DNA of 64,000 nucleotides from a virus: the IMG/VR virus record IMGVR_UViG_3300048694_001005, positions 96,001 through 160,000 of that record. The stretch is one strand, 5' to 3'. Below the pieces are notes generated by a model. The model was not told the DNA's origin. It saw nothing but the letters and a program-made list of their open reading frames with translations, and ran no database searches. Of the stretch, positions 19,031 through 34,827 are shown piece after piece (position 1 is the first letter of the stretch; every line of letters starts with the position of its first letter). The translations under genes were made by a program, and so were the position numbers.

Positions 19031-19056
19031 AAAGGGGCTACGGCCCCTTTATTTTT
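19031..19056. terminator. Bidirectional intrinsic terminator between the convergent sheath and endonuclease genes
   Basis: AAAGGGGC-TACG-GCCCCTTTATTTTT. Confidence 0.8.
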
Positions 19057-20839: not shown

Positions 20840-21457
20840 ATGTCAGTAGCAAGTTTAACTAAATTTACAGTACCACTAGCAAGTGATCAAAGCGCCAGCA
20901 GCCAGGGCCTGTTAATGCCCAAACTGCAATATCGTTTTAGAGTGACCTTTGAAAACTTTGGTGTCAGTACTCCACGTACAGAATTAACAAAGCAAGTTAA
21001 CGATTTTAAACGTCCCACAGTTAGCTTTGGTGATATCGTAATTGATACTTACAACAGCAAAGTAAAGCTAATTGGTAAGCCAGAGTGGCAGGATGTTACA
21101 GTAACCTTCCGTGACGACATGCAGGGACAGGTCAGCAAACTGATTGGTGAACAGCTACAGAAACAGTTTGATTTCATGGAACAGGCCAGTGCATCTTCTG
21201 GTATTGACTACAAGTTCATCACACGTTGCGAAATGCTGGATGGCGGCAATGGTGCAAGCACTCCCACTGTATTAGAAACTTGGGAACTGTATGGTTGCTT
21301 AGTGAGTCAAGTAGATTACCAAACAGTAGACTACAAAAGCAATGATCCAGTTACAATTCAAATGACCATTAAGTTTGACAACGCAGTGCAAACGCCAGTT
21401 GGCACAGGTGTTGGTGCTACAGTAACTCGTGCATTAGGTACTGTAGTAACTGGTTAA
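20840..21457 (+). CDS. Tail tube protein
   Basis: LLMPKLQYRFRVTF; KPEWQDVTVTFRDD; WELYGC; follows the sheath; AATAAATA and AAGGAG upstream. Confidence 0.85.
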   Translation: MSVASLTKFTVPLASDQSASSQGLLMPKLQYRFRVTFENFGVSTPRTELTKQVNDFKRPTVSFGDIVIDTYNSKVKLIGKPEWQDVTVTFRDDMQGQVSKLIGEQLQKQFDFMEQASASSGIDYKFITRCEMLDGGNGASTPTVLETWELYGCLVSQVDYQTVDYKSNDPVTIQMTIKFDNAVQTPVGTGVGATVTRALGTVVTG

Positions 21458-21477
21458 TAATAACTATAAGAAATCTT

Positions 21478-21505
21478 AAGCCCGGCTTCAAAAACCGGGC
21501 TTTTT
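21478..21505 (+). terminator. Rho-independent terminator
   Basis: AAGCCCGG-loop-CCGGGCTTTTT. Confidence 0.85.
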
Positions 21506-21524
21506 CTTATGCATAAATATCTAT

Positions 21525-22568
21525 ATGTCCATATTAGATAGCATTCTTAAACCTATAACCGGTCTCACTGGCAGTGGCTTATTAAAGAGCCTGGGCCAAA
21601 GCGAGAATATGCGTGATTACCAACATGCTAGTAAATTGTTTGTATCAAATGGTTACGAGCTGTCGCCAAAAACACAATTTCTTTATCATGTATACTTCAA
21701 TATTAATTCATCAGCTAGGTCACTGGTTCAAAATTGGGATAGCTTAAAAAAATTAGAAGTAGGAATGTTAGTAAAAAGTGTGGACCTTCCCAAATACAAA
21801 CTTAACACCAAAGTGTTAAATGCTTATAACCGCAAACAGATTGTGCAGAGTAAACTGGATTACGAACCGGTACAGTTAGTAATGCATGACGATTCACAAA
21901 ACGTAGCTCGTGATTTATGGCAAGCTTATCTTAAATATTATTACAGAGATACAGACTATGGCGTTGACAAGTATAAAGTTATAAACACATATGATCCTAG
22001 AATTACTGATCAGTGGGGATATACAATACGTGGTGATACCGGTGCTGCGCAAAACTTTTTTACAAGTATAAAGATTTACAGCCTTAGTTTGAAAAAATAC
22101 AGTTTATATGAATTAATTAATCCCAAGATTGACGGTTTTGAACATGGTAGGCACGATGTAAGTCAGGGCACAGGCACAATGGAACATACCATGCGTGTAA
22201 GTTATGAAACTGTGAAGTATAGTCAGGGATATGTAGGCAGTGGTAATGTAAGCGGATTTGCACAACAGCATTATGACACACAGCCAAGTCCATTAAGTCC
22301 CTTGGGTGGTGGAACAAAAAGTATATTGGGTCCAGGTGGCCTTATTGATAGTGCCGCAAACATTGCAGATAATTTGGGAGAAGGTAACTTTGGTGCTGCT
22401 GCGTTGGGTGCACTACGTGCTAGTCAAAATCTTAAAAACTTTGATTTTAAAGCCGTGGCCAAACAGGAATCTATAGACAGCATTCGCAATGTTATACGTA
22501 ATACTGCTAATGGCCCATTTAAATTTCCCAGCCCTAACAGTGAAAAACCTAATCAAGCTACTCCATAA
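21525..22568 (+). CDS. Tail-tube-like/baseplate tube-cap protein
   Basis: VKSVDLPKYKLNTKVLNAYNRK...YEPVQLVMHDD resembles the tube fold; CATAAATA upstream. Confidence 0.6.
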   Translation: MSILDSILKPITGLTGSGLLKSLGQSENMRDYQHASKLFVSNGYELSPKTQFLYHVYFNINSSARSLVQNWDSLKKLEVGMLVKSVDLPKYKLNTKVLNAYNRKQIVQSKLDYEPVQLVMHDDSQNVARDLWQAYLKYYYRDTDYGVDKYKVINTYDPRITDQWGYTIRGDTGAAQNFFTSIKIYSLSLKKYSLYELINPKIDGFEHGRHDVSQGTGTMEHTMRVSYETVKYSQGYVGSGNVSGFAQQHYDTQPSPLSPLGGGTKSILGPGGLIDSAANIADNLGEGNFGAAALGALRASQNLKNFDFKAVAKQESIDSIRNVIRNTANGPFKFPSPNSEKPNQATP

Positions 22569-22571
22569 ACT

Positions 22572-22937
22572 ATGGCCAACTACAGCAATTTACCAGTAAT
22601 AGACAAACCAGAAACACAGAGATATTTTGAAGAATATTTTGTGAAAGAACGTGGAGTCAGTCAGAATTTCTACGACAGTGCTATAGCTTTTTTTGAACAA
22701 CAAACTAATGGCAACAAGTTGGCCGCAGCTAATATTGTTGCTGCATTAATTGAAGTAGTTAAAACACAAAACTTAGACCCAAACGAACTATTAGATAATT
22801 TTAGGACCATGAGCATGCAAGACATTAATATGTTCATGGTTACCGCACTAAATTTCAATAGAAAAAACACAAGCTTTTTGGGATTTAGAACAGTACGTCG
22901 CAGCAATGCATTAGTAGATAGAACACTTTTGCCCTAA
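22572..22937 (+). CDS. Hypothetical protein (structural operon)
   Basis: ORF track; contiguous with its neighbours. Confidence 0.6.
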   Translation: MANYSNLPVIDKPETQRYFEEYFVKERGVSQNFYDSAIAFFEQQTNGNKLAAANIVAALIEVVKTQNLDPNELLDNFRTMSMQDINMFMVTALNFNRKNTSFLGFRTVRRSNALVDRTLLP

Positions 22938-23374
22938 TGGCCAATAGATTTTTAAAGGGTGAATATAAACTACAGAATCCAGAAAAGTATACTGGTACAA
23001 GAGCGCCTCTATATAGAAGTTCTTGGGAATATGGGGTCATGCGATTGTTTGATAATAATCCAGCGGTAATTGCCTGGGCCAGTGAAAGTGTAGTTATACC
23101 CTATATAGATCCACTAACTGGGCACAAGAAAAATTATATACCGGATTTTCTCGTAGTTTATCAGGATCGCAAGGGTCAAAATCATGCGGAGATAGTGGAA
23201 GTCAAACCCAGCAAAGAAGCATCACTAACCGAAGCTAAGAGCATCAGAGACAAGGCCCTAGTAGCACGTAATCAAGCTAAATGGCGTGCTGCCACTGCAT
23301 TTTGCAAAGGTGCCGGCATGAGCTTTAGAGTAGTAACCGAAAACCAAATTTTTGGCGCTGCTCGCAAGCGGTAA
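22937..23374 (+). CDS. Head completion nuclease (T4 gp4-like, TnsA-type)
   Basis: YRSSWE; WASESVVIPY; YIPDFLV; EIVEVKP; NQAKWRAA. Confidence 0.85.
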   Translation: MANRFLKGEYKLQNPEKYTGTRAPLYRSSWEYGVMRLFDNNPAVIAWASESVVIPYIDPLTGHKKNYIPDFLVVYQDRKGQNHAEIVEVKPSKEASLTEAKSIRDKALVARNQAKWRAATAFCKGAGMSFRVVTENQIFGAARKR

Positions 23375-23381
23375 ATACAGC

Positions 23382-23873
23382 ATGACCAAACATTTAGAAG
23401 AATTGTTCAACATACCACCAACTCCCACTCAGTTAGAAGAAAATTTACCCATAGAAGTATTGGAGGAAGTTGATGCAGCTTTGGATAAAATAGATAATGC
23501 ATTGCCGCAAGTGCGAGCATTAGAGTCCAGTGACAGTGAACTAGACGAACTAGCTAATTTGGCCAAAGACAAGTTTAACGATCTCATGGATCTAGGAATG
23601 AATGTAGAACCGCGCATCAGTGGGCAAATATTTCAAACTGCTGGTGTGCTTTTAGGACATGCCATAACTGCCAAACAGGCAAAGATAGACAAAAAACTGC
23701 GTATGGTACAGTTACAAATACAAAAAGCTAGGCTGGATAAAACAAATAATTCAGCACCGGCCGGGGCGCAACCTGCAGAACCAGAGGAAATTGAGGGCAA
23801 AGCTACGGTAATAGATCGTAATAGCTTGTTAAAAACTATACTTGCAGAAGCAAAAAAGAATGAAAACGAATAA
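23382..23873 (+). CDS. Helical protein, possible terminase small subunit
   Basis: MTKHLEELF; LMDLGMNVEPR; AKIDKKLRMVQLQ; the assignment is tentative. Confidence 0.45.
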   Translation: MTKHLEELFNIPPTPTQLEENLPIEVLEEVDAALDKIDNALPQVRALESSDSELDELANLAKDKFNDLMDLGMNVEPRISGQIFQTAGVLLGHAITAKQAKIDKKLRMVQLQIQKARLDKTNNSAPAGAQPAEPEEIEGKATVIDRNSLLKTILAEAKKNENE

Positions 23874-23895
23874 ATATTGTGATAGGATAAAGACA

Positions 23896-24489
23896 ATGAA
23901 ATCACTAACCCATTACCTAACCGAAAGTGCAAGAACCTACAGTTTTAAAATAAAGATTGCTGTAGATAGCCTAACTGATGAACAAATTGATGCTATAGAG
24001 CAACAACTACAGGCATACAAATTGGTCAACATAAGCAAACCAAAACGACTGCCCATTCAACAAAATCCCTTGGGTTTTGAACATTTGGGTGCTGTTACTG
24101 TACAAGCTATGGAAGCTGAACTAGCTTACCCAGCAACTGATGTACAGGTAAAAGAAGCTGTAAGACTGGGTTGCAAATGTGCTGGCAATCACATTTATGT
24201 TGGTAGCGAAGCGCAAGAGCAAGATACTGTTCGTTTAGACCTGGACGAAAAAGATGGCAAGCCCATACTAATGCAGGATTATGATAAAAGTGATCCCAAA
24301 GTAAAAGAACTTTATGGTGATGAAAACATTAAGATCATACTAAAAGATTTTGACAGCAAGAAACGCAAGTATGAATTTGAAGTAGTTAACAACACCGAAG
24401 CAAAAAGCACGAATGATTTACCGCAGGGTAAGATGAGTCCTGTTGGCAGTACGCAAAACAAGATTCCAGACCCATATAAGAACCGTTAA
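23896..24489 (+). CDS. Putative internal head/core protein (MKSLTHYLTE N-terminus)
   Basis: ATG 23896 follows AATAAATA; LxE motif near the N-terminus. Confidence 0.55.
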   Translation: MKSLTHYLTESARTYSFKIKIAVDSLTDEQIDAIEQQLQAYKLVNISKPKRLPIQQNPLGFEHLGAVTVQAMEAELAYPATDVQVKEAVRLGCKCAGNHIYVGSEAQEQDTVRLDLDEKDGKPILMQDYDKSDPKVKELYGDENIKIILKDFDSKKRKYEFEVVNNTEAKSTNDLPQGKMSPVGSTQNKIPDPYKNR

Positions 24490-24500
24490 GGACCTGTACC

Positions 24501-26159
24501 ATGAAAATGATAAACGTATTGAACAAGCTAACTGAACTAAGCAAAGAAAACACCAGTCCCGATGTCAAACAGGCCCTGGAAAGTACACGTAAGATAAATG
24601 GTGATGCTAACCTACAGGTCATTGAAGAACACATCGTGGAAGGTCGCATTGACGATTTGAACGATCGTCGCGCAGCTAAAAAACGCAAAAGCAAAAAGCA
24701 CAAAGACAAAGCTGGCACCAAGGAAAAGCCACGTATGGTCAAGGGTCATCGTTATGGTGGTAGCAAACAAAAAGATGATGATGACAGAGAAGATTTGGAT
24801 GAAAGCGATGAGCTAGCACGCCGCGCTGATTTACGCGCCAAGTCTGGTGAAGGTATTTTGACTAAGAGAAAATATGGTCCTGAATACAAAGCTCACATGC
24901 GCAATAAAAAGAATTTAAAGCAGGATCCTTACAAGATTGCTGGACCAAAAGGTGCATTGCCCGAATCAGAAGTGCAAGAAGTAATCACTAAGAAAACACC
25001 TGCTGGTGAGATCATTAGTGATTTCCAAAAGAGCAAGAACCCAAAGTTTAAGGGTAAGAGCAAAGCCAAGCGCAAGGACATGGCGCTGGGAGCATACTAT
25101 GGCATGCATCCCGAAAAAAGCAAAGTTAAAGAAACAGCAATGACACCCAAGCAAAAGAAATTCGCAGCATTAGCAAAGCCTACGAACAAAATTACCTATG
25201 CTGACAAAATTGCTGGCGCACGTAAGAACACTGGAGTAAAAGAAACTAAACTAACACCCAAGCAAATGAAGATTGCTAAAGCAGCCAAGCCAACCAATGC
25301 AATTACCGGTGCTGATTTTGCAGCATTGCGTAAGGGACGTAAAGTTGAAAGCGCATTAGTTCGTGAAGGTACTGAGCGCAAAGCTAAAAACCTAACTGAA
25401 AGCAAAATGATCACAGAGACCAATGATTTGGTTGACTTGAGAAAACTAGCTGGCTTAAATGAATGCGGCATGATGGGTACCACAATGGGTGCACATACAC
25501 CAGCAAACATCAGTATTAATGCAAGTGCAGCCAGCGGCAGTGAAGTAGCCAGCATGATGCGTGACTTGATGCGTTTAGCCGGTGGCGAAACTTCGGCACA
25601 TGTGCCCGAGATTGCAGTAATGGATGGTGCAGCCTGCGGTGGTATGGAAGAAATGGTGGATGAAAGCGAACAAGACGGACACTTTGCTGATGCTACCACA
25701 GAACCAGCAGAGCAAGTATTTGACGAGAATCCAGTTGTTTCAATGACTGGTAAACAAGTGCAAACACCCAATGGTAATGCACGTCAAAACGACAATCCAC
25801 TAGAAGAAAGTCTTTGGAAAAAATACCAAGCACAGGTAAACGAAGGATTCGATCCTGAAAGTTTTGAAGGCAGCACAGATGTAACTTGGATTGGTGACGA
25901 TGGTGAAGAAGTGGAGGGATATGTAAATTATATCGCTACACCTGATCCACAAACCGGACATTTACATGTTAAGTTAACTGGTGGTGCTGTAACTGGTAAC
26001 AATATTGCTGCTAAAGTTGACGATCACATGATTCAGTATCTAATCACTGATCCAGACTACAGTGCGGAATATCAACAGGCTGCTGAACAGGATGCACAAG
26101 CACAGTGGGACTCACGTGACGCTAAACAGCACGACTTGGGCGATCCAGCAGCTATGTAA
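24501..26159 (+). CDS. Modular Lys-rich putative internal head polyprotein
   Basis: Basic blocks separated by LxE/VxE motifs; internal duplication TPKQ..A..AKPTN.IT.AD.A..RK. Confidence 0.55.
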   Translation: MKMINVLNKLTELSKENTSPDVKQALESTRKINGDANLQVIEEHIVEGRIDDLNDRRAAKKRKSKKHKDKAGTKEKPRMVKGHRYGGSKQKDDDDREDLDESDELARRADLRAKSGEGILTKRKYGPEYKAHMRNKKNLKQDPYKIAGPKGALPESEVQEVITKKTPAGEIISDFQKSKNPKFKGKSKAKRKDMALGAYYGMHPEKSKVKETAMTPKQKKFAALAKPTNKITYADKIAGARKNTGVKETKLTPKQMKIAKAAKPTNAITGADFAALRKGRKVESALVREGTERKAKNLTESKMITETNDLVDLRKLAGLNECGMMGTTMGAHTPANISINASAASGSEVASMMRDLMRLAGGETSAHVPEIAVMDGAACGGMEEMVDESEQDGHFADATTEPAEQVFDENPVVSMTGKQVQTPNGNARQNDNPLEESLWKKYQAQVNEGFDPESFEGSTDVTWIGDDGEEVEGYVNYIATPDPQTGHLHVKLTGGAVTGNNIAAKVDDHMIQYLITDPDYSAEYQQAAEQDAQAQWDSRDAKQHDLGDPAAM

Positions 26160-26173
26160 TTTCAAAGCAATGA

Positions 26174-26611
26174 ATGATTGTTTATTCAAATTCTGTGGAC
26201 ACCTACGTTTTAAGTCGGTTGTCTGAACTCAAACGAATCCGCCGTGGCTATCATGCCACGGCAGTGCCCTGGTACTATCAATGCAATGTGAACAACTGGG
26301 ATTGCCTTAGTGGGTTTCCAGTTGACATCACTAGTGTTAAACTAGTCAAAGTATCAGCAAAGCTATACAAAAAAACGGCAGTTAATTCTCTCACCTTGGC
26401 CAAGACTGAAGCCCTGGACTTTGACTGTGTTCGTATTGCGATACCACTTAGCGATCAAGGGCATTATGAGCTGCATGCTGGTGCTGACACCGTGTCGCTA
26501 AAATATGGGCGTGTTTATGTGTTCACAGCAGTGGATACTATGAAATTATCAGTTAAAAAACTCAGCAGTAAAGACTATTACCTATTGATGATTGATTGCA
26601 TATTAGTATAA
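26174..26611 (+). CDS. Hypothetical protein
   Basis: 145-aa ORF. Confidence 0.5.
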   Translation: MIVYSNSVDTYVLSRLSELKRIRRGYHATAVPWYYQCNVNNWDCLSGFPVDITSVKLVKVSAKLYKKTAVNSLTLAKTEALDFDCVRIAIPLSDQGHYELHAGADTVSLKYGRVYVFTAVDTMKLSVKKLSSKDYYLLMIDCILV

Positions 26612-26614
26612 ATA
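26607..26614 (+). promoter_or_regulatory. T4-type late promoter TATAAATA
   Basis: Exact TATAAATA 22 nt before ATG 26637. The same exact motif occurs at 49779, 54370, 59358 and 61729, and (A/C)TAAATA variants precede most structural genes. Confidence 0.75.
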
Positions 26615-26636
26615 CTGATATCCTGAGGACAGAAAC

Positions 26637-29351
26637 ATGCATGTATTAGATTTATTTGGTGAAGAGTCGCAGCCGTTAAATGAGGGTTCGGTAAAGAATA
26701 GAGATATCGAGCGTCAAGACTATGAAAACATGTCAGGACGAGAATTTTTGGCGGCTTATAAAATGGGCAAAGCAGAATGGGCGCTTAAAAACCCTGACAT
26801 TGTGCCAAAAAAATCTAAACCCAAAACCACCAACGAAGCTAAACCTGTGGCACATAGTATTGAACATGCTGTTTGGAGTAAAAAGTCCCCTGATGAACAA
26901 AAGTTTTTGAAACAGTTGCATCCCGACTTAAAAATCAAAAACGTACCACCAGCACCACGTCCTGAGCGAGTTAAAAAGACACCAATTGATTACGCCGCTA
27001 TTGCGCGTAAAGCCGAGAATGTCTGGGGCAATATATTTCCTGATGGCGATCCCGTAGATTGGATGTATCCGTATTTAAAACGCATGGGTATTCCTGCTGA
27101 AAAGCAATACAAGGTATTGGATCGAGCTATTAGATTGCATGTAGACAAAAAAGGTTATGATCATTGGTTGGAATCAAGCTGGGATCAAGTAGCTGACGAC
27201 AATATGATGCCAGGTACGGTTACTCGTGAAAATAATCCATGGCGAGTTTCTGAAGGTGTGACAGAAAATAGCGGAGACACAAGGGCTAAACTGGCCAAAA
27301 TCATTGCACGTGAAATGAAGACAGCAAAGTCCAGTGAGTTGACAAAGACACAACGCAAACACGCATTCGCGGTACTAACACGCGCCAAAGAAGCTAAACG
27401 TATGTTGGATGCTGGTGCAGATGAATCCACAGCATGGGCACACTTCCAAGGTACCAAGCAGGAAATGGCGGAAGGCAAATGGTTCCGCACCACTTATGGT
27501 TGGGCCGGTGGTGAGAAGCCTGGTGGCGGCAAATATGTTCATCCTGAGGTCGCAGCCGAACGTCGCCGTGAAAAAGCCAAGAAAAAGCGTGAACAGGAAC
27601 GACAAGCAAAGTCAGGTACAGGTGCCAAACCTACTACCAGTACACATTGCCCGGGCTGTTACAGTACCGATATCAAAACCTACAGTGATGGTGAGAAAGA
27701 ATGCCATCAATGCGGTAAAACTTGGCATGTTTTTGGAAATAGAATTTTTATAGATCATCAGGGCGAATGGGAGGAGAAAATCAGTAAAGTTTGGCCAAGA
27801 TCACAGATAGAATACTCCGGCGAAGATATGTATGCCGCTCGTCTAACAAATGGTTATCTCGTAGGAGCATTCAAAATAGATCAAGGTGGTTGGATAGAAA
27901 AGCCAAGGAAAGGTGTGGCGGAAGGCTCCAAAACTCCTTGGAAAGATTTAGATAAACCTTTTGACCGAGATGTTAAAAAAATGAAAAACCAAGGCAGCGC
28001 CAATCCATTGTACAAAAAGAAGGTTGGTGAGCAAGGTGTGGCGGAAGGCTCGGCGTATCAACATCATGTTGTATCAAAATTAGATGGCAATGTATTGGCT
28101 TCTTATAAGACGCGAGAAGAAGCTCAGAAAAATGCTCATGGTAATCCAGTTGTTTCTGGTTCTTTAGAGACCATTGGTGATAGACAATATACCAGAGAGC
28201 AAGGTGTGGCGGAAGGCTATTGGCAAGATGCCATACAGGATGTGGAAGCAGCACGTAAAGCACGTAAAGGCAAACCGTTTGAAAAGAATCCGCTAAGCCA
28301 TGATGAACAGGGAGTTTACATCGGTGATAAGGATTTAGCTGGCAATCCTGTACCTAAACCCAACGAAAAGGACGTGGCAGAAGCTAAGCCAGGACTGTAT
28401 GCCAATGTACAGGCCAAGCGCAGGAGAATCAAACAGGGATCTGGGGAGCGTATGCGCAAGCCTGGAACTAAGGGCGCACCCACTGCACAAGCTTGGCGCG
28501 ATGCAGCAAAAACAGCTAAGAAGGAAAGCATGGAGGAAAACATGAAACTTGTTGAATATTTGACACGTCCCGGAGAATCATTTGACGCAATTTTAGGTCT
28601 TAATGTTTTCGCTGATCTAGTAGGTGATGTTCAAGACATGGATGAAATGTTTGGAGAAAGTAGAGAATGGCGCAGGATTAGAAAGAAATACACCAAGATA
28701 GCCAAATACTATATTGATCTAGTTAACCAAATTTCCGCCACAGGTAGAAAGCTGACAAAGGAAGAGTCAGACGCTATTGAAATTTGGTGGTATGATGGCA
28801 ATGATATGTATGATGATGAAGAAATGTCTGGATTGGCGGAAACATACGATGGCCAACTTAAATTAGTTGAAAGACTAATTGGATCAGGACAATCGGGAGT
28901 GACCGAAGATTTGATGAATGAACTGTCCCGAGACACGCTAAAGAGTTATTTTGGTAAACGCATGGCATCAGCCACGTCCATGGACAAACGCAAAAATTTT
29001 AAAAAGGCTACTAAAATCATCAAAACTAATTTACCACTTGCTATGAAAAAACTTAAAGATCCAGCGTATGGTAAAGCTACGCCCAAATTAGTTGATGAAG
29101 CTGCCTTACCAGAAGAACTGTTTAAGACTACATCAGAAATCAATAACCCAACTGATGCCGTAAAAATGGATATCCCTCTACTGATTAGAATTATGGAATA
29201 CGCACGTGAAGATGCCAAAACTGACTTAGAGCTGCATGATGTAGCAGAACGATTAATTAGTTTGGGCAAGGCAGGTAACACATTAAGCATGCGTGACTAT
29301 GATAAGATTGTTGGCACTGATGCAAAGGCAATGATCAATAACAAACTATGA
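26637..29351 (+). CDS. 904-aa modular putative internal head polyprotein with repeated GVAEG junctions
   Basis: Unrelated modules separated by PLNE, TTNE, GVTE, EMAEG, GVAEG x3, DVAEA; includes a CxxC..CxxC zinc finger and the basic peptide KPGLYANVQAKRRRIKQGSGERMRKPG. Confidence 0.65.
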   Translation: MHVLDLFGEESQPLNEGSVKNRDIERQDYENMSGREFLAAYKMGKAEWALKNPDIVPKKSKPKTTNEAKPVAHSIEHAVWSKKSPDEQKFLKQLHPDLKIKNVPPAPRPERVKKTPIDYAAIARKAENVWGNIFPDGDPVDWMYPYLKRMGIPAEKQYKVLDRAIRLHVDKKGYDHWLESSWDQVADDNMMPGTVTRENNPWRVSEGVTENSGDTRAKLAKIIAREMKTAKSSELTKTQRKHAFAVLTRAKEAKRMLDAGADESTAWAHFQGTKQEMAEGKWFRTTYGWAGGEKPGGGKYVHPEVAAERRREKAKKKREQERQAKSGTGAKPTTSTHCPGCYSTDIKTYSDGEKECHQCGKTWHVFGNRIFIDHQGEWEEKISKVWPRSQIEYSGEDMYAARLTNGYLVGAFKIDQGGWIEKPRKGVAEGSKTPWKDLDKPFDRDVKKMKNQGSANPLYKKKVGEQGVAEGSAYQHHVVSKLDGNVLASYKTREEAQKNAHGNPVVSGSLETIGDRQYTREQGVAEGYWQDAIQDVEAARKARKGKPFEKNPLSHDEQGVYIGDKDLAGNPVPKPNEKDVAEAKPGLYANVQAKRRRIKQGSGERMRKPGTKGAPTAQAWRDAAKTAKKESMEENMKLVEYLTRPGESFDAILGLNVFADLVGDVQDMDEMFGESREWRRIRKKYTKIAKYYIDLVNQISATGRKLTKEESDAIEIWWYDGNDMYDDEEMSGLAETYDGQLKLVERLIGSGQSGVTEDLMNELSRDTLKSYFGKRMASATSMDKRKNFKKATKIIKTNLPLAMKKLKDPAYGKATPKLVDEAALPEELFKTTSEINNPTDAVKMDIPLLIRIMEYAREDAKTDLELHDVAERLISLGKAGNTLSMRDYDKIVGTDAKAMINNKL
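27910..28218 (+). repeat. Exact direct repeats AAGGTGTGGCGGAAGGCT (18 bp x3; extends to 22 bp in two copies)
   Basis: Copies at 27910-27927, 28033-28050 and 28201-28218; GAGC extension at 28029 and 28197; 11-bp core TGGCGGAAGGC also at 27466-27476. Confidence 0.95.
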
Positions 29352-29509
29352 GCCCAAAAGAGCAGCGTAACGCTTATATTCAATACCTTTTAATGAAGGT
29401 TGAGCAAGCTGACTGGCATGGTGTAAGTGATGCCGCAAATGACCTGCGTGAACTAGAAGCTCGTTACACTGCATTGCGCGATGAGGAAATAAACCTGAAT
29501 AGATCATGA
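29348..29509 (+). CDS. Small protein (53 aa, DWHGVSDAANDLRELE), absent from the ORF track
   Basis: Hand-translated; ATGA overlaps with both neighbours. Confidence 0.65.
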   Translation: MSPKEQRNAYIQYLLMKVEQADWHGVSDAANDLRELEARYTALRDEEINLNRS

Positions 29510-30012
29510 GCAACTATCAAATCTATCTACAGACCTGTAGAGAATTGGTAATTGAAGCGGAATCATCAGCCCATCTTGATCTTAATGACAGCGTGAACGC
29601 ATATTTGGTTGCATTGCTAGCCAAAAATTTTGACAAACCCAACTGTATACAATACAATTACGATCTATTAACTCGCACCACTAGCAAAGAAGACAGCTAT
29701 CTAGCACGTACCGAATGTGTAGCGGCCGCGGAACAATGTTTAATGATTAGTGGCATTACACCATTTGTTGCAGAACGACGTGGCATTGAGCCCAAGCATT
29801 TCACTCAATGTGGTCGCACTTTTTATCACAGAGCAGCACATTGCACTAGACCACCTGATGATTTTATGACTGAACTTGCTGGGCAATTTGCTGTTATGCG
29901 TGACATTGTAGGCACTGCATTTGACCGCGGAATTAAAACATTTGCGCAGCGTAGACAGCTTGTGGCGGCAGGAAGCTGTGCCATCAAACACTACTCTATA
30001 AATATCAAGTAA
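29506..30012 (+). CDS. Hypothetical protein
   Basis: 168-aa ORF. Confidence 0.55.
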   Translation: MSNYQIYLQTCRELVIEAESSAHLDLNDSVNAYLVALLAKNFDKPNCIQYNYDLLTRTTSKEDSYLARTECVAAAEQCLMISGITPFVAERRGIEPKHFTQCGRTFYHRAAHCTRPPDDFMTELAGQFAVMRDIVGTAFDRGIKTFAQRRQLVAAGSCAIKHYSINIK

Positions 30013-30032
30013 TTTAGTTTTGCTCAAATTGC

Positions 30033-30061
30033 TAGATTTAATCATCACATTCATATACAAT
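30033..30061 (+). promoter_or_regulatory. Promoter variant TAGATT-N17-TACAAT before the dsDNA-binding/polymerase operon
   Basis: Same hexamers and spacing as 34045-34073. Confidence 0.5.
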
Positions 30062-30083
30062 TTAATTTCAAAGGAGACTTATA

Positions 30084-30344
30084 ATGAGTAACAGAGTAAT
30101 CACTGCTGAACAAAAGGCCAAACTAAATCAGCTTTTCAATGAAGGGATTTCGGTCCTTACAGAAATCGAGGATTTGACCGCTGGACTAAACGATACTATC
30201 AAAGCAGTGGCAGAAGAAATGGAAATTAAACCTGCCGTGCTAAAGAAGGCAATTAAAATTGCTAAGAAAAGCGAATTCGGCAAAGAAACCGAAGATCACG
30301 AATTGCTGGAAACCATTCTTACTACGGTGGGACGTACTGTTTAA
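30084..30344 (+). CDS. Double-stranded DNA-binding protein (T4 DsbA-like)
   Basis: 86 aa; LNDTIKAVAEEMEIKPAVLKKAIKIA; SD AAGGAG; precedes the polymerase. Confidence 0.6.
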   Translation: MSNRVITAEQKAKLNQLFNEGISVLTEIEDLTAGLNDTIKAVAEEMEIKPAVLKKAIKIAKKSEFGKETEDHELLETILTTVGRTV

Positions 30345-33004
30345 TGAGTTACGTTGATGCTTACCTAAACAAAGAAGAAGATCGTATATATGTAGTAGAA
30401 CGCATAGATGGCAAAAGGATATTTACTGAATATCCTGCCGAATATAGGTTCTACTACGATGATCCACGTGGAAAATTTCAAACTATCTATGGCACGCCGG
30501 TAAGCAGGTTCACAACACGTAACAGCAAAGAGTTCCATAAAGAGCTGCGCATTAACAGCAATAATCGTATTTGGGAAGGTGACATCAATCCCGTATTGCG
30601 ATGCCTAAGTGAGAACTATCTTAACGCAGCAGCACCACAATTACAAACCGCGTTTTTTGATATTGAAGTCGCGTTTGATCAGGATCGCGGCTTTAGTTCG
30701 CCCACAGATCCGTTCAATCCCATCACTGCAATCAGTGTGTATTTGGATTGGTTGGATCAGTTAATCACACTGGTCATACCGCCCAATCATATTAGTGATG
30801 AATCTGCGGCTGAAATAGCCAACAAGTTTGAAAACTGTTTGGTTTTTAGGTCTGAGGCGGATCTACTTAATACGTTCTTGGAAATAATTGATGATGCTGA
30901 CATACTGAGCGGCTGGAACAGTGAAGGCTATGATATTCCCTACACTGTTAACAGAACTGTGCGCGTATTAAGCAAAAACGATATACGACGATTCTGTTTA
31001 TGGGATCAAAATCCACGCAAGCGAACCTTTGAACGATTTGGTAACGAAGAAACTACCTTTGACTTGATTGGTCGTGTGCATTTGGACTACATGCAGCTAT
31101 ATCGCAACTATACCTATCATGAAATGCATAGTTATAGCTTGGATGCTATTTCGGAATATGAGCTAGGTGAGAAAAAGGTAGCTTATGAAGGCACACTGGA
31201 TCAGTTATACAACAAAGACTTTCAAAAGTTCATAGACTATAACCGCCAGGATACCATGTTGCTGGCTAAACTAGACAAGAAGCTGAGATTTATTGATCTC
31301 AGTAATGAACTGGCACATGAAAACACGGTGTTGTTGGCAAAAACCATGAGCGCAGTGGCACTGACTGAGCAAGCAATTATCAATGAAGCACATGCTCAGG
31401 GTTTAATTATTCCAAACCGCAAAGAATATGCCACAGATGACAATAGACCTGCTGCGGGTGCGTATGTTGCATATCCCAAAAAGGGTATGCATGAGTGGAT
31501 TGGTGCAATAGATATTAACTCACTGTATCCTTCGGCTATTCGCGCATTAAACATGGCTCCAGAAACTATTGTGGGACAATTACGACCCATAATGACTGAT
31601 AACTATATTCAGGAAAAGATCGATGGCGGCGCGCATTTTGCAGCAGCATGGGAAGGCTTGTTTGGTAGTTTGGAATATTCGGCCGTAATGAACCAGGAGC
31701 GCGGTACTGAGATTACTGTAGACTGGGAATCTGGTGACAGCACTACACACAGCGCAGCAGAATTGTGGCGACTGATCTTTGACAGTCACAATAAATGGAC
31801 CCTAAGTGCGAATGGTACTATCTTTAGTTATGAACGTGATGGTATTGTACCGGGATTATTGGCGCGTTGGTATGCAGAACGTAAAGAACTACAGGCCAAA
31901 AAGAAAGATGCTACAGATAAAGCTGAAATAGCGTTTTGGGACAAGCGCCAGCTAGTAAAAAAGATTAACCTAAACAGTTTGTATGGTGCCATTTTGAATC
32001 CAGGCTGTAGGTTCTTTGATGCCCGCATTGGACAAAGCACCACGCTAACAGGTCGTCAAGTAGTTAAACACATGAACGCCAAAATCAATGAGTTGGTGGC
32101 TGGCGAATATAACCACGTGGGTGTAAGTAATATCTACGCTGACACTGATAGTGCGTATTTTAGCATTTGGCCTGTTATCAAAGAATCAGTTGAACGCGGT
32201 GACATGGTCTGGAATAAAGATGCTTGTGTTGAACTTTATGATGCCATAGCAGAGCAGGTTAACGAAAGCTTTCCAGCATTTATGGAACAGAACTTCCACT
32301 GCCCACGACGTTTAGGTGAGCTGATACGTGGTGGTCGCGAACTAATCGCTAGCAAGGGGCTATATATCACCAAGAAACGTTATGCGGTATTGATATATGA
32401 CTTAGAAGGCAAGCGACTGGATGTCAATGGTGAGCAAGGTAAAACTAAAGCCATGGGACTGGACCTTAAACGCAGCGATACGCCAAAAATTGTGCAGGAT
32501 TTCCTAAGCAAAGTATTGATGGAAGTGTTAACTGGTGCAGATCGCGAACAAGTAATAGACATGATCAAGGAGTTTAAGGCTAAGTTTTCCGATCTTCCTG
32601 CCTGGCAAATGGGAACACCAAAACGTGTGAACAATTTAACCAAATTTACACGTGAAGAAGAACGACTGGGCAAAGCAAATATGCCAGGGCATGTTCGAGC
32701 AGCTATGAACTGGAACAATTTGCGAAGAATGCATGGTGATAATCACAGCATGAAGATCACTGATGGCATGAAGACCATTGTTTGTAAGCTCAAAAATAAT
32801 CCCTTGGGTTTAACAAGTGTGGGCTATCCTATTGATCAGCTAAACTTGCCAGAGTGGTACAAAGAGCTGCCTTTTGACAATGCGGAAATGGAAGATACTA
32901 TCGTGGATCAAAAGATTGACAATCTTTTGGGCATATTGGACTGGAATCTACGTGATGCTACCACAACTAAAACAAAAATTAACGATCTATTCAGCTTCGA
33001 ATGA
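30344..33004 (+). CDS. Family B DNA polymerase (T4 gp43-like)
   Basis: Exo motifs FFDIEV, GWNSEGYDIPY, YNRQDT; pol motifs DINSLYPS, KKINLNSLYG, YADTDS, KKRY. No intein seen. Confidence 0.97.
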   Translation: MSYVDAYLNKEEDRIYVVERIDGKRIFTEYPAEYRFYYDDPRGKFQTIYGTPVSRFTTRNSKEFHKELRINSNNRIWEGDINPVLRCLSENYLNAAAPQLQTAFFDIEVAFDQDRGFSSPTDPFNPITAISVYLDWLDQLITLVIPPNHISDESAAEIANKFENCLVFRSEADLLNTFLEIIDDADILSGWNSEGYDIPYTVNRTVRVLSKNDIRRFCLWDQNPRKRTFERFGNEETTFDLIGRVHLDYMQLYRNYTYHEMHSYSLDAISEYELGEKKVAYEGTLDQLYNKDFQKFIDYNRQDTMLLAKLDKKLRFIDLSNELAHENTVLLAKTMSAVALTEQAIINEAHAQGLIIPNRKEYATDDNRPAAGAYVAYPKKGMHEWIGAIDINSLYPSAIRALNMAPETIVGQLRPIMTDNYIQEKIDGGAHFAAAWEGLFGSLEYSAVMNQERGTEITVDWESGDSTTHSAAELWRLIFDSHNKWTLSANGTIFSYERDGIVPGLLARWYAERKELQAKKKDATDKAEIAFWDKRQLVKKINLNSLYGAILNPGCRFFDARIGQSTTLTGRQVVKHMNAKINELVAGEYNHVGVSNIYADTDSAYFSIWPVIKESVERGDMVWNKDACVELYDAIAEQVNESFPAFMEQNFHCPRRLGELIRGGRELIASKGLYITKKRYAVLIYDLEGKRLDVNGEQGKTKAMGLDLKRSDTPKIVQDFLSKVLMEVLTGADREQVIDMIKEFKAKFSDLPAWQMGTPKRVNNLTKFTREEERLGKANMPGHVRAAMNWNNLRRMHGDNHSMKITDGMKTIVCKLKNNPLGLTSVGYPIDQLNLPEWYKELPFDNAEMEDTIVDQKIDNLLGILDWNLRDATTTKTKINDLFSFE

Positions 33005-34047
33005 CAATACAAATAAAAGACGCACAATTAAGGCAGCTGATTGAAACCGAGACAGAAATTAGTCGTATAATGGCCAAATTTCCAGTAATAACCACAAATG
33101 CTAGGCACGAATTTAGTGAGATGCTTGGTCAATTACATGATATATCTCCAGTCGCTCTTAAAAAAGAATTATACCCTATGCAAGGTCGCATAGATGAAAT
33201 TTTCCATCTATCCGGCCAATTGCATTACGACTATAATGAGTTTTTACAGAAACTAAAAGCGGAAATAAAGAGAATTAAATCAGAAAAACAGCTTTTGTTA
33301 GCGAAAAATCTCAATATTAAATCGAAATCTTTTACCAACTACCCACTATCTGGCGACCTAGACCCAAATACAGATAATGAATTGACTTTATTTTTACAAG
33401 GCTTATTGGACTACAATGTAAGTTTTAAATTTCCTGGTTTAATATTAGGAGGTGAAGTAGACCAATGTCTAAATACTATGGTAGCTAATGATCCTTTGTA
33501 TACCTGCGTAAATAATTCTAAAATGGAAAAATATCAAACCATGTTAAACAATGACTTTTATTTTTCCAAACGACTAAGAAAATATAATTATGACAACTTC
33601 AGTTTAGAAAGCTTGGACGCTTTACCTAAAGGACAGTTTGGGCTAATTGTTGCAACTGGTCATATTGACATGTTGCCACGATATAATATACAAGCGTATA
33701 TGACACAGATAGGTCAACTGTTGCGTCTGGGTGGTACTTTTATTTTTAGTTTCTTTGATATTGATATTTTAAAAGCTGCCGAGGCTATGGAATTGCATTT
33801 AATTAATGAAAATATCAAGCATCAAGCAGCTATCAACAGCGACCCTATTTGGTGGCATAAATTAGAACCATATCCCAGTTGTTTAACACTACATGACTAT
33901 CTACCCATTATCAATTCTACTCAAATGAGGTTCATTAGTTACAATCAATTTGCATATCACAGTATCGTAGTATGCAAAAGACTGGGCGATATTCAAACTA
34001 TAAAATTATCACAGAATTTAGGCGAAATAAAATCTACACAAGACTAG
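33001..34047 (+). CDS. Hypothetical protein, possibly a degenerate class I methyltransferase fold
   Basis: LLRLGGTFIFSF resembles the MTase C-terminal motif; no clear GxGxG; AT-rich. Confidence 0.4.
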   Translation: MTIQIKDAQLRQLIETETEISRIMAKFPVITTNARHEFSEMLGQLHDISPVALKKELYPMQGRIDEIFHLSGQLHYDYNEFLQKLKAEIKRIKSEKQLLLAKNLNIKSKSFTNYPLSGDLDPNTDNELTLFLQGLLDYNVSFKFPGLILGGEVDQCLNTMVANDPLYTCVNNSKMEKYQTMLNNDFYFSKRLRKYNYDNFSLESLDALPKGQFGLIVATGHIDMLPRYNIQAYMTQIGQLLRLGGTFIFSFFDIDILKAAEAMELHLINENIKHQAAINSDPIWWHKLEPYPSCLTLHDYLPIINSTQMRFISYNQFAYHSIVVCKRLGDIQTIKLSQNLGEIKSTQD

Positions 34048-34073
34048 ATTTTTCTAAATACATGTAATACAAT
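34045..34073 (+). promoter_or_regulatory. Promoter variant TAGATT-N17-TACAAT before the clamp/DpdA operon
   Basis: Matches 30033-30061. Confidence 0.5.
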
Positions 34074-34092
34074 AATTCCATTGGAGAAAACT

Positions 34093-34827
34093 ATGAAAGA
34101 CTATCTATCAGATCTAGTAGCACACACGCAGGGCTTGGGAAGTATTGGCTTTGTAAAAATCACAGGCAACACGAAAGATACAAAAATCGAAGCAGTGAGC
34201 GAAGATAAAGCAATTATTTTGCAGGGTGCTTTCAACGCGCCAATCGCAGAATTTATTGGTGTTTTTGGTATGCCAGATTTGAACAAGCTTAATATCATAT
34301 TGAACATTAGTGAATATGAGGAAGATGCAGTAATCAGTGTAACTAAAAAGACAGTGGGCAGTGATGAAGTACCCAGCGGTTTGCATTTTCAAAACAAAGC
34401 TGGTGACTTTGAGAACATTTATAGGTTCATGACTACAGATGTGGTTAACGAAAAACTTAAATTTATCAAATTGAAGAATACGCCAAAGTGGAATATCACT
34501 TTTAATCCCAGTGTGGCTAGTATTCAGCGTTTCAAGTTTCAGAGTCAAGCGCACAGCGAGGAACCCTTGTTTACGGCCAAGACTGAAAAGAAGAACTTAG
34601 TGTTCCAGCTGGGTGATGTAAGTAGTCATGCTGGTAACTTTGTGTTTGAAAACAATTTCACTGGCAGCATTAGTAAACCCTGGAGTTATCCGGTACAGTC
34701 AGTGTTAAGCATCATGGGACTATTGGGCGACAAAACTATGATGTTCAGTGACGAAGGTCTATTGCAAATTACAGTAGATAGCGGCATTGCCAAATATAAC
34801 TATATGTTGCCTCCACACACCAAATAA
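34093..34827 (+). CDS. Sliding clamp (gp45-like)
   Basis: 244 aa, beta-rich; FIGVFGMPDLNKL; QITVDSGIAKYNYMLP; position after the polymerase. Confidence 0.6.
   Translation: MKDYLSDLVAHTQGLGSIGFVKITGNTKDTKIEAVSEDKAIILQGAFNAPIAEFIGVFGMPDLNKLNIILNISEYEEDAVISVTKKTVGSDEVPSGLHFQNKAGDFENIYRFMTTDVVNEKLKFIKLKNTPKWNITFNPSVASIQRFKFQSQAHSEEPLFTAKTEKKNLVFQLGDVSSHAGNFVFENNFTGSISKPWSYPVQSVLSIMGLLGDKTMMFSDEGLLQITVDSGIAKYNYMLPPHTK

Follow-up and report, generated by a model that had tools for sequence, protein, structure and literature searches.

In-frame exchange of small protein modules at a short linker in a gene of a T4-superfamily jumbo phage

A modular gene in a lake jumbo phage

Whole protein modules have been gained, lost and replaced at a short linker sequence, both between genes of one phage genome and between phages. 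The gene in which this was seen lies in the 64-kb stretch of DNA analysed here (hereafter the window), which is part of an uncultured freshwater (lake) T4-superfamily jumbo phage of approximately 350 kb. It encodes a chain of about 13 small modules with short linkers of the form hydrophobic-x-Glu between them, the main form being (K/Q)GVAEG. The open reading frame proposed in the initial annotation is real (26637..29351, + strand, stop codon included; 904 aa). It is found between tail genes and the DNA polymerase gene, with the head-gene cluster elsewhere (C1:45-52 kb). The late promoter suggested earlier corresponds to a T4-late-promoter-like octamer, TATAAATA (26607..26614, + strand), 22 nt ahead of the ATG, with a ribosome site, GAGGA, at 26625-26629 (+ strand) preceding the same ATG. 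Across 180 kb of the genome, 10 of 19 copies of TATAAATA have an ATG opening at least 60 aa within 60 nt downstream, compared with 164 of 767 for permuted 8-mers; the octamer is not over-represented in these 180 kb (11 + 8 copies, with approximately 10.7 per strand expected from composition). We judge the chances to be about even that a T4-related jumbo phage here carries a hypervariable ‘cargo’ gene of the late type.

A second modular gene of the same system lies upstream (24501..26159, + strand; 552 aa), and its C-terminal part is found again in P0025, behind GVAE linkers. This gene and two genes adjoining the terminase (a large-terminase-like ORF, judged by eye, at C1:7282-8865) share the module pool of the 904-aa gene.

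The linker repeat

The 18-nt sequence AAGGTGTGGCGGAAGGCT occurs exactly three times in the window, at 27910, 28033 and 28201, and no further copy with up to three mismatches is present in the 64 kb. The chance expectation is 0.04, and three matches were reached in 0 of 100 shuffles. Two copies, at 28029-28050 and 28197-28218, agree over all of 22 nt. This 22-nt form is matched at 86% by the sequence at 27906-27927 and at 73% by that at 27456-27477, within which the 11-nt core TGGCGGAAGGC lies at 27466-27476. This agrees with the repeats described in the initial annotation (18 nt exact at three sites, 22 nt at two and an 11-nt core at 27466). All of the copies are in frame, reading RKGVAEG in copy 1 (27906..27927, + strand, with the 18-nt exact core from 27910), EQGVAEG in copy 2 (28029..28050, + strand), EQGVAEG in copy 3 (28197..28218, + strand, the same 22 nt as copy 2 and the right-hand breakpoint of a block replaced in the relative L005) and QEMAEG in the most divergent. 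Weaker linkers of the same type are present at aa 205-211 (SEGVTEN), 578-583 (KDVAEA), 630-635 (ESMEEN) and 752-758 (QSGVTED), and the joints read V-A-E, M-A-E, V-T-E or M-E-E.

Modules of the 904-aa protein

The modules range from 35 to 146 aa (median 69 aa), are mutually unrelated and each have a different set of relatives, in agreement with the unrelated modules noted initially. All are given here on the + strand. The chain opens with an N-terminal leader, MHVLDLFGEE (aa 1-10; 26637..26666), of the type M-x-h-x-[DENQ]-h-F, a candidate capsid-targeting propeptide, followed by M0 (aa 11-65; 26667..26831), which is common to alleles P0001 and P0002. M1 (aa 66-210; 26832..27266) is helical, ends in GVTE, is missing from allele P0002 and is found in P0003-P0006 at 57-72% identity in other chain positions. 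M2 (aa 211-279; 27267..27473) is a basic helical hairpin that ends in EMAE, with the 11-nt repeat core (27466-27476) at this end. Basic M3 (aa 280-330) and the zinc ribbon M4 (aa 331-365) together span 27474..27731, and a paralogous copy of this pair (85% aa) is present in a second gene of the same genome; the ribbon motif, CPGC...CHQC, occupies aa 338-359, with strands predicted at a pLDDT of approximately 90.

M5 (aa 366-429; 27732..27923) has no linker on its left side, at the M4/M5 joint (27731/27732), and none is found at the M3/M4 border. M5 is missing from L005, P0002 and the paralogue; in P0009 it is present at 92% identity, behind a DMAEE joint. M6 (aa 430-470; 27924..28046) has a paralogous copy (90% aa) at G000 C1:11312-12508, while M7 (aa 471-526; 28047..28214) is found as a tandem duplicate in P0108, with joints of another kind, KFVKE/S. 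M8 (aa 527-582; 28215..28382) ends in DVAE and is widespread, being covered by approximately 44 of 93 hits. M9 (aa 583-634; 28383..28538) is a basic helical peptide that matches phrog_16028. Acidic M10 (aa 635-757, ending in GVTE) and basic M11 (aa 758-820, ending in LVDE) occupy 28539..29096. The C-terminal module M12 (aa 821-904; 29097..29348) is kept in all three alleles and also occurs in proteins of 125-225 aa, one of which, P0124, has the same kind of leader.

Net charge is +8 for aa 280-330, +9 for aa 583-634 and +11 for aa 759-820; it is −11 for M10 and −5 for M12. The basic peptides and Zn-finger noted initially are thus present as three basic pieces and the ribbon at aa 338-359. The 904-aa protein was modelled with AF2 (mean pLDDT 59, pTM 0.29) as confident islands between low-confidence joints, and dips at residues 205-213, 576-615, 751-753 and 812-825 correspond to four joints. 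Residues 374-526 (M5-M7) were predicted with pLDDT below 50, and these modules may be disordered peptides instead of effectors. Besides M9, no module matched a Pfam or PHROG family, a Pfam search of the 904-aa protein at E ≤ 0.01 returned 0 families, and an anti-defence function could be assigned to no module.

Modules are exchanged between relatives

L005 is colinear with window positions 21162-34486 at 93-97% nucleotide identity, with indels only in the two modular genes. Where the window has 27731-28199, L005 has 1471 nt; it carries 183 additional nt with a copy of the DVAEA joint (28374-28388) on either side and is without window positions 28548-29084 (the M10/M11 region). In the upstream gene there are 327 additional nt and, elsewhere, 199 nt replace 4; two additional cassettes follow LDE and LPE, and the first of them ends in EQGVAE. 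The proteins P0001 (1124 aa) and P0002 (526 aa) are 90-98% identical to the window protein over the first 65 and last 88 residues and differ from it in their middle modules. Module content therefore differs between near-identical relatives, with breakpoints at linkers, as the cassette claim of the initial annotation required, and the fixed module order that would have spoken against that annotation is not seen in L005, P0001 and P0002.

The pattern extends to the wider set of module matches. Match ends lie within 6 aa of a linker Glu in 70 of 145 cases (16.8 expected; maximum of 29 in 2000 randomisations), and different kinds of neighbour were seen for 44 of 53 module families. We consider it very probable that cassettes are exchanged at the linkers. 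Since modules are gained, lost and replaced across genes and phages, they constitute a common pool, passed horizontally between phages whose core genes diverged long ago. Logan contigs fragment between about 27600 and 28300. The loose contig ends at linkers correspond at least partly to the paralogous gene of the same genome, so the contig test does not demonstrate variation within the population.

Linker DNA in metagenomes

IMG/VR was scanned with a linker pattern left open at every synonymous site, which yielded at least 126 stretches. Among the distinct sites, 82 of 85 (80 loci) were in frames of at least 100 aa. The form GGTGTGGCGGAAGGC was present in 61% of those 82 sites, whereas codon use in these ORFs predicts 0.2%, with GCG at 90% (9% expected) and GTG at 88% (21% expected); it was also the form used at 96 of all 152 G-V-A-E-G sites in those ORFs. 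In variant linkers, V/M-A/T-E is kept and the flanking glycines are the most variable positions. Exact copies of the 21-mer were present in at least 122 metagenome stretches, and 83 of 83 sites (80 loci) were in an open frame, with 75 distinct upstream and 78 distinct downstream flanks. At least 75 different module contexts in metagenome contigs are connected by this one linker DNA. Conservation stops sharply at 21 nt, with none outside in the sequence logo.

To put this identity in context, a DNA polymerase is present on 17 of 25 linker-bearing contigs. Over 136 polymerase pairs (amino acid identity 0.57-0.86), the fraction of identical residues using the same codon has a mean of 0.46 (range 0.38-0.59). 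The same fraction is 0.80 for linkers with unrelated flanks and 0.71-0.74 for homologous flanking modules, with which linker values of 0.78-0.80 were compared. The linker thus shows no measurable excess of conservation over the adjacent exchanged modules, which makes no case for selection as a handle over identity by descent or conversion. The proposal that the repeat is a recombination handle consequently stands in part: exchange at linkers, one linker in many contexts and the retention of rare codons all agree with it, while selection as a handle is unsupported. The DNA-level result stands alone, in that module and linker DNA are common to phages with a same-codon fraction of 0.46 in their polymerases and 0.80 in their linkers.

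Leader, protease and possible packaging

The initial annotation went on to read the gene as encoding a head protein with cleavage sites that release injected effectors, which is plausible. The short N-terminal leader would take the chain into the prohead core, where the gp21-type (Peptidase_S77) protease of the phage would cleave after the Glu of each linker; the freed basic peptides, zinc ribbon and small helical domains would remain with the packaged DNA and enter the host. Cutting and packaging of the chain seem to us evenly balanced between true and false, and host-directed effector roles for most modules are a more tentative proposal.

The protease gene is found at G000 C1:48684-49322 (PF03420 at C1:48819-49253, E 5.4e-30), and a gp23-type capsid protein (PF07068, E 3.6e-99) is encoded at C1:45853-46803, adjoined by portal and scaffold genes. 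The N-terminal part of the capsid protein has ALLE/G, [VIC]LE/N and L-x-E/[TNS]A kept in six of six relatives. Two findings detailed below also fit the protease reading: joints that lack the DNA repeat still follow hydrophobic-x-Glu, and M9 is a stand-alone gene among head genes of cultured podoviruses. In T4, the gp21 motif is L/I-X-E and internal proteins are targeted by N-terminal propeptides of 10-20 residues (PMC9026906, PMC5694885). The third residue before the putative cut is V or M in the main linker and L/I in T4. Hydrophobic-x-Glu is a short motif, frequent by chance. Also against the packaging reading are the M3/M4 and M4/M5 borders, which have no such site, the strict leader being confined to a minority of linker-rich proteins, and the placement of the gene outside the head-gene cluster.

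The leader motif M-x-h-x-[DENQ]-h-F was present in 16 of 54 distinct N-termini of proteins with at least two linkers and in 1 of 26 with fewer. It was also found in 10 of 89 shorter proteins. The sequence after the leader is unrelated from protein to protein, and Glu occupies one of positions 8-11 in 15 of 26 leaders (counted by eye). No significant sequence match to the T4 leader was obtained.

The strongest alternative, though an unlikely one, is that the chain stays uncut and works as one multidomain protein, be it a virion protein of the polyvalent type or a different late protein, with linkers that act as flexible spacers and recombination joints and have no dealings with the protease. 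The beads-on-a-string AF2 model (pTM 0.29) would fit such a protein, as would the V three residues before the Glu, unlike the L/I of T4. Relatives of the modules occur in long proteins that also carry SLT, DUF6321, RMF and Sigma70_r4, together with a match to ART-PolyVal below threshold, a mix typical of polyvalent proteins (PMC5512222). However, hydrophobic-x-Glu persists at joints that lack the DNA repeat, namely LDE and LPE in the upstream gene and KFVKE/S and SVLE/N in P0108, and variant linkers keep V/M-A/T-E while their glycines vary most. In P0108, the same module begins directly after the LFE of the leader and again directly after KFVKE. The 904-aa protein also has neither a polyvalent hallmark domain nor an embedded peptidase. 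These observations count against an uncut protein.

Even if the chain is cut, its pieces might be prohead core or scaffold-like filler, or DNA-neutralising peptides, that are mostly expelled or stay inside the capsid. The strongly basic pieces (+8, +9 and +11) and the low confidence of M5-M7 are in keeping with this, the T4 core proteins gp22, gp67 and gp68 are cleaved to short fragments (PMC5694885), and M9 forms an ORF of its own (approximately 50 aa), flanked by the scaffold and capsid genes, in both of the two cultured T7-like marine podoviruses inspected. We nevertheless regard such a role as somewhat less likely again than an uncut protein: such rapid turnover between phages with 93-97% identity is not what one would expect of filler, nor is membership of a pool that also contains zinc-ribbon, SLT, RMF-like and sigma-region-4-like modules, and acidic, folded M10 and M12 are unfit as counter-ions.

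How modules might be exchanged

The 18-21-nt linker is one in-frame stretch of homology that recurs at many joints, and it is there that modules are exchanged. The exchange agent is most likely general homologous recombination, because a RecA/UvsX-type gene is present and no integrase was seen (0 matches to the tyrosine integrase family PF00589) in the 180 kb, about half of the genome, that was searched.

A bolder reading, which we think improbable on present evidence but worth stating, is that the 21-nt linker is a dual-use DNA and protein element of a whole clade of lake jumbo phages of approximately 350 kb, an ‘integron for protein modules’. Direct repeats would let cassettes loop out and re-enter any linker in frame, in any cargo gene of any co-infecting relative; once translated, the linker would provide the site at which the protease releases each module inside the capsid; the modules together would make up a communal, quickly reassorted arsenal of injected host-takeover and anti-defence peptides; and the linker would be under selection as DNA. 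Integrons move whole genes by means of attC hairpins and a tyrosine integrase. The resemblance lies in an array that can grow, made of exchangeable units with the same recombination sequence at their borders, whereas here the units are in-frame protein modules, with no hairpin and no integrase in 180 kb.

A dedicated sequence-specific machine, such as a homing-type nuclease or site-specific recombinase that recognises the 21-mer, might instead keep the linker identical. The sharp end of conservation at 21 nt, the rare codons and the identity of the linker in phages with polymerases that are 14-43% divergent as proteins could all be explained by such an enzyme, and homing-type endonuclease genes are present in the window (19049-20695 and 22937-23374). 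However, neither an inverted repeat nor a hairpin is present in the linker (self-fold −0.7 kcal/mol), the 180 kb (about half of the genome) held no tyrosine integrase, and certain breakpoints fall at joints without the repeat. With the linker no better conserved than the adjacent modules, a shared pool suffices without a special enzyme, and we give the dedicated machine little credence compared with general recombination. The notion that the mosaic is an assembly artefact, with contigs misjoined at a short repeat that is common to many genes and lies where Logan contigs fragment (about 27600-28300), can be discounted almost entirely, as the 18-22 nt repeat is shorter than assembly words, the independent IMG/VR contig L004, a separate record, matches 28092-32781 at 99.85% identity, linker 1 is spanned with no mismatch by contigs from runs X2 and X6 (two studies), X2 contigs span linkers 2 and 3 with no mismatch and at least 31 nt on each side, and all 83 metagenome sites are in an open reading frame.

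Comparison with known systems

The system is a new form of the T4 internal-protein and polyvalent-protein systems, and we found no published account of such a swappable cargo gene in the literature. If the proposed steps hold, it would be a natural form of plug-and-play capsid loading, in which many small proteins travel on one address tag and each joint is both a recombination point and a release site. This would explain how giant phages renew injected proteins far faster than their core genes diverge, and would make the pool a large source of small phage proteins that are candidate early-acting modifiers of the host or its defences. It would also suggest a design rule (leader, cargo, VAE joint) for placing foreign proteins in T4-type heads.

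In T4, IPI, IPII, IPIII and Alt combine a capsid targeting sequence with gp21 processing (PMC9026906, PMC5694885, PMC3012670). Common to both systems are T4-type head genes, including a gp21-family protease in this genome, a short N-terminal leader on otherwise unrelated cargo (here a candidate targeting propeptide), hydrophobic-x-Glu candidate cut sites, diverse and fast-changing cargo and a late-type promoter. T4 has one gene and one leader per cargo, whereas here up to about 13 modules stand behind one leader in one frame, split by repeated internal sites that are conserved as DNA and also serve as exchange points; and the T4 cargo is cut and packaged, which for the present chain is predicted from its genes.

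Polyvalent proteins combine 2-15 distinct domains per polypeptide, in phages with a portal and terminase, and their hallmarks are a zincin-like peptidase, ART, helicase, methylase and lysozyme, commonly with release by an embedded peptidase (Iyer et al. 2017, PMC5512222). The 904-aa protein resembles them in its extensive mosaicism and in bringing many unrelated domains into one polypeptide predicted to accompany DNA, and its approximately 13 modules fall within the 2-15 range, in a phage with a portal gene and the terminase-like ORF at C1:7282-8865. None of the hallmarks zincin-like peptidase, ART, helicase or methylase was detected in it by Pfam (E ≤ 0.01), its modules are much smaller (median 69 aa), and, unlike the polyvalent proteins as portrayed there, it would need the separate head protease for release, having no embedded peptidase. 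The term ‘linker’ has 0 occurrences in the available text of PMC5512222, so no repeated, DNA-conserved joint is described in that text.

Head-internal proteins of phiKZ, 201phi2-1 and SPN3US are cut after Glu, at S/A-X-E or A-X-E (PMC9026906, PMC5694885). With these inner-body and ejection proteins the present chain shares the possibility of several sites per protein, and there the proteins are ejected into the host. In the portions of both papers at hand, they have long propeptides and a fixed architecture, belong to another phage lineage and lack an organisation into chains of exchangeable modules, and no joint conserved as DNA is described for them.

A parallel for the DNA element itself is the PeSL cassette system, in which T4-type genomes are shuffled by recombination between short promoter/stem-loop elements (Arbiol et al. 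2010, PMC2839356). Both have short conserved DNA at the borders of units that are gained, lost or replaced between close relatives, and as a border element of this type the linker qualifies; it is not an intergenic promoter and stem-loop. PeSL elements, as set out in the available part of that account, are an intergenic promoter plus terminator hairpin that shuffle whole genes, whereas the linker is coding, in frame and free of hairpins and shuffles modules, and its 18-21 nt are also translated into a candidate protease site.

Linkers of the modular, putative cargo gene

The modular gene, a candidate cargo gene, is a real feature of this virus, related to known systems but with a new, in-frame arrangement of cassettes. 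Its open reading frame (26637–29351, +) encodes 904 aa, within which the modules (M0–M12) are joined by short linkers, mainly of the (K/Q)GVAEG type. The sequence AAGGTGTGGCGGAAGGCT is present in exactly three copies in the 64-kb window (27910, 28033 and 28201), with no further copy there when up to three mismatches are allowed, and three matches were reached in none of 100 shuffles. Two of the copies share 22 identical nt (28029–28050 and 28197–28218) and an 11-nt core is found again at 27466, so a sequence search of the window bears out the threefold 18-nt repeat, its extension and its core as described in the initial annotation. All copies are in frame and are translated as (R/E)(K/Q)GVAEG. 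Similarly built but weaker joints occur as GVTE (aa 207–210 and aa 754–757), MAE (aa 277–279), DVAE (aa 579–582), SMEE (aa 631–634) and LVDE (aa 817–820). No hairpin was found in the linker, and a role as a Shine-Dalgarno-like pause site was rejected: its pairing with the anti-SD decamer (−6.6 kcal/mol) is not unusual, as 13% of the gene's own 21-mers pair as well or better.

A late promoter had also been proposed ahead of the gene. The octamer TATAAATA lies 22 nt 5′ of the ATG and its placement is promoter-like (10 of 19 copies, compared with 21% for permuted octamers), but it shows no genome-wide enrichment (19 copies, approx. 21 expected).

Modules are exchanged at the linkers

The focal protein has no Pfam family anywhere along its length, and its PHROG match is confined to aa 578–635. 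None of 93 related database proteins is colinear with it over the full length; each has one or a few pieces in common. Two relatives, P0001 (1124 aa) and P0002 (526 aa), share its first 65 residues (98%) and its last 88 (95 and 90%, respectively), with P0001 remaining 96% identical over the first 367 residues, while their middle parts consist of other modules, likewise linked via KGVAEG, KQGVAEG or EQGVAEG. The contig encoding P0001 (L005) is colinear with window positions 21162–34486 at 93–97% DNA identity, and all indels fall within the focal gene and the gene upstream (24501–26159, +; 552 aa). In the focal gene, 1471 nt take the place of 27731–28199, a 183-nt cassette has a copy of a DVAEA joint on either side, and 28548–29084 is missing from L005; in the upstream gene, one cassette follows LDE and ends in EQGVAE, and a second extra cassette follows LPE. 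Module content, whose comparison the initial annotation had suggested, changes between close relatives, with breakpoints at the linkers.

The same pattern was quantified across module matches, 70 of 145 match ends lying no more than 6 aa from a linker Glu where 16.8 were expected and the maximum of 2000 randomisations was 29. We also surveyed 97 proteins, comprising the 93 matches and four genes of the same genome. Two or more linkers were present in 62 of them, inner segments had a median length of 69 aa, and 44 of 53 module families had more than one kind of neighbour; as the 97 proteins were picked through their likeness to the query, these figures hold for that set and not for the whole family. 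We conclude that modules are exchanged at the linkers. Contigs from sequencing runs also show joints and loose ends at linker edges (27730, 27909, 27928, 28046–51, 28194–98 and 28217), but these were not counted as population-level variation because two of the loose ends correspond to a paralogous gene (C1:11312–12508 of the full 180-kb record, whose coordinates are prefixed C1 here).

A cysteine-bearing peptide, ..CW.GY...G.KKK.G..VPNCVPK, recurs in P0003–P0006, P0007, P0086, P0165 and P0206. It is the C-terminal module in many chains and once lies close to an N-terminus, and may represent either a further widespread cassette or an end piece that serves as an anchor.

Several modular genes per genome

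A genome carries several genes of this modular system. A second locus (C1:9076–12526, −), adjoining an ORF that resembles a large terminase, holds two such genes of 398 aa (start MKLVEFHDEE) and 564 aa (start MNLFNIFEGLW), both bearing a short N-terminal leader. M3, M4 and M6 are common to this locus and the focal gene: one second-locus gene carries a copy of M3–M4 (85% aa identity) followed directly by a linker and M6 (90%), with the M5 of the window missing. P0025 contains the C-terminal portion of the upstream gene again, behind GVAE linkers.

The upstream gene also contains an imperfect 81-nt tandem repeat (25124–25204 and 25235–25315, 72% identity) encoding a duplicated basic peptide of the form VKET..TPKQ..AKPTN.IT.AD. 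Near the head genes, C1:41448–41747 (−) encodes a very basic 99-aa protein with a leader-like start (MKINEIICEAE) and a C-terminus (..RKWNC) like those of P0079 and P0082.

Linker DNA in viruses, metagenomes and cells

To search IMG/VR we back-translated the linker heptapeptide with every synonymous position left free, which yielded at least 126 stretches. Among the matches listed, 80 loci gave 85 distinct sites, 82 of them within frames of at least 100 aa and with unrelated flanks. The DNA form GGT GTG GCG GAA GGC was used at 61% of these 82 sites, whereas codon use in these ORFs would predict 0.2%; GCG reached 90% (9% predicted) and GTG 88% (21% predicted). When all G-V-A-E-G sites in those ORFs were considered, 96 of 152 had this form and another 22 differed from it at the last base only; the less common linker types seem to have arisen from the main form by single-base changes. 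The exact 21-mer was found in at least 122 metagenome stretches, and all 83 sites fetched among the matches listed lay in an open frame, with 75 distinct upstream and 78 distinct downstream flanks. A search with the 18-mer across 596 Gb of bacterial and archaeal genome sequence gave 56 stretches, 55 of which were single copies in G+C-rich or otherwise unrelated DNA (42–78% G+C) and look like chance. The single exception was an 8.9-kb MAG contig (L207, 41% G+C) with three copies in one frame.

Core genes of the 25 longest linker-bearing contigs among the matches listed served as relatedness controls. A DNA polymerase was present in 17 of the 25, 54–72% identical to that of the window, and amino acid identity across the 136 pairs ranged from 0.57 to 0.86. 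At identical polymerase residues the same codon was used in a fraction of 0.46 (range 0.38–0.59), or 0.50 when limited to K, Q, G, V, A and E. Between linker sites with unrelated flanks this fraction was 0.80, and for homologous linker-flanking modules in different contigs it was 0.71–0.74. At the DNA level, modules and linkers therefore resemble each other much more closely than do the core genes of the phages carrying them, so they are exchanged horizontally. Conservation in the linker does not clearly exceed that in the exchanged modules flanking it, however, so its identity is explainable by descent and conversion within a shared pool, with no need to invoke extra selection on the DNA. The initial annotation had read the repeat as a recombination handle: the breakpoints at linkers agree with that reading, while the conservation of the linker does not single it out.

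The linker as a candidate protease site

The best reading of the linker peptide is as a candidate head-protease site. Passages of PMC9026906, PMC5694885 and PMC3012670 describe cleavage by T4 gp21 after Glu in L/I-X-E, cleavage by phiKZ-type proteases at S/A-X-E, and N-terminal targeting propeptides of 10–20 residues on the internal proteins of T4 as well as on Alt. The gp21-family protease of this phage is 61–65% identical among six relatives, and the phage's capsid protein has three hydrophobic-x-Glu sites within the N-terminal 42 residues, kept in six of six relatives. Joints without the DNA repeat, such as LDE and LPE in the upstream gene and KFVKE|S and SVLE|N in P0108, nevertheless fit hydrophobic-x-Glu. 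In P0108, one module starts directly after the LFE of the leader and then again directly after KFVKE. The leader itself, M-x-h-x-[DENQ]-h-F (h, hydrophobic), is present in 16 of 54 linker-rich proteins compared with 1 of 26 others, and also starts single-module proteins such as P0124. On this reading, the modules would be packaged in the head. Several features speak against the protease reading: the linkers have V or M in place of L/I at the third position ahead of the cut, the motif is short, the M4–M5 border has no joint, the strict leader is missing in most relatives, and the focal gene sits outside the T4-type head cluster (C1:45.8–52.5 kb, with portal and acidic scaffold genes, a Peptidase_S77 protease, a gp22-like scaffold and a gp23-type capsid protein).

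The arrangement resembles T4 internal proteins in its address tag, head protease and diverse cargo, with tag and processing here predicted from motifs; polyvalent proteins in that many domains would be delivered together; and, on the DNA side, the PeSL-mediated shuffling of T4-type phages (PMC2839356). Unlike all three, the focal gene is an in-frame chain of small cassettes in which one joint is both exchange point and candidate release site. The word 'linker' is not used in the polyvalent-protein paper (PMC5512222), and a full-text literature search with the linker pentapeptide returned four papers, none of them on phages going by their titles.

Module M9 and structural models

In tblastn searches of cultured phages, M9 was the sole module matched (67 records), and none of these records covered 80% of the query; blastn returned polymerase scraps only. 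Homologues of M9 are separate ORFs of approximately 50 aa, without annotated function, in two cultured marine phages of the T7-like type, Pelagibacter phage HTVC168P (L218 5001–5144) and Synechococcus phage S-SBP1 (L219 5001–5153), where they are flanked by the scaffold and major capsid genes; this placement counts in favour of the protease reading of the linkers.

Modelled in full with AF2 (48 sequences, pTM 0.29), the chain consists of confident islands with low-confidence joints between them, which also counts in favour of the protease reading, but residues 374–526 are poorly predicted throughout. A model of aa 431–640 (38 sequences) reached pLDDT 62 and pTM 0.24, with M6 and M7 below 50, so that no fold can be assigned to them. 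A PDB sequence search with the focal protein gave no match at E ≤ 1, and Foldseek with the full model gave none in the PDB at E ≤ 0.001. The viral structure library BFVD gave one match (E 6.6e-5). The matched protein is labelled 'large polyvalent protein associated domain', but the match was discarded as structurally meaningless, given a TM of 0.07 and an rmsd of 50. For aa 66–211, the best ESM Atlas feature score (0.76) and TM (0.35) were both under the bars of the tool.

Phage and genome context

The window covers bases 96001–160000 of an IMG/VR virus record of 180,565 bp; as the completeness of this record is rated at 51%, the genome should measure approximately 350 kb. A similar size is again implied by the 25 longest linker contigs, mostly 14–76% complete at 49–262 kb, the two exceptions being two chance-type matches. 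The surroundings of the focal gene include genes for the tail sheath, the tail tube, a homing endonuclease and a family-B DNA polymerase. This polymerase shares 49% identity with its counterpart in Sinorhizobium phage Phosso, 45.6% with the one in Atu_ph07 and 41% with those of jumbo phages of the GAP32, CBB and fHe-Yen9 group. All 15 sequencing runs with part of the stretch are labelled freshwater metagenome. A RecA/UvsX-type gene is present in the 180-kb record, in which no tyrosine integrase was found.

A homing/HNH-type endonuclease gene (19049–20695, −; 548 aa, with DUF7487 and Mom-family matches) is encoded on the opposite strand and has the tail sheath gene on one side and the tail tube gene on the other. 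The product of 22937–23374 (+) has a Pfam match to the TnsA-like endonuclease N-terminal domain (E 7e-23), in conflict with its best PHROG, 'head closure'. In a related contig (G004 C1:65117–69503) the DNA polymerase is in three pieces (query residues 1–111, 115–602 and 599–886), apparently through an interruption of its gene, for which an intein, an intron or a gene insertion are possible causes.
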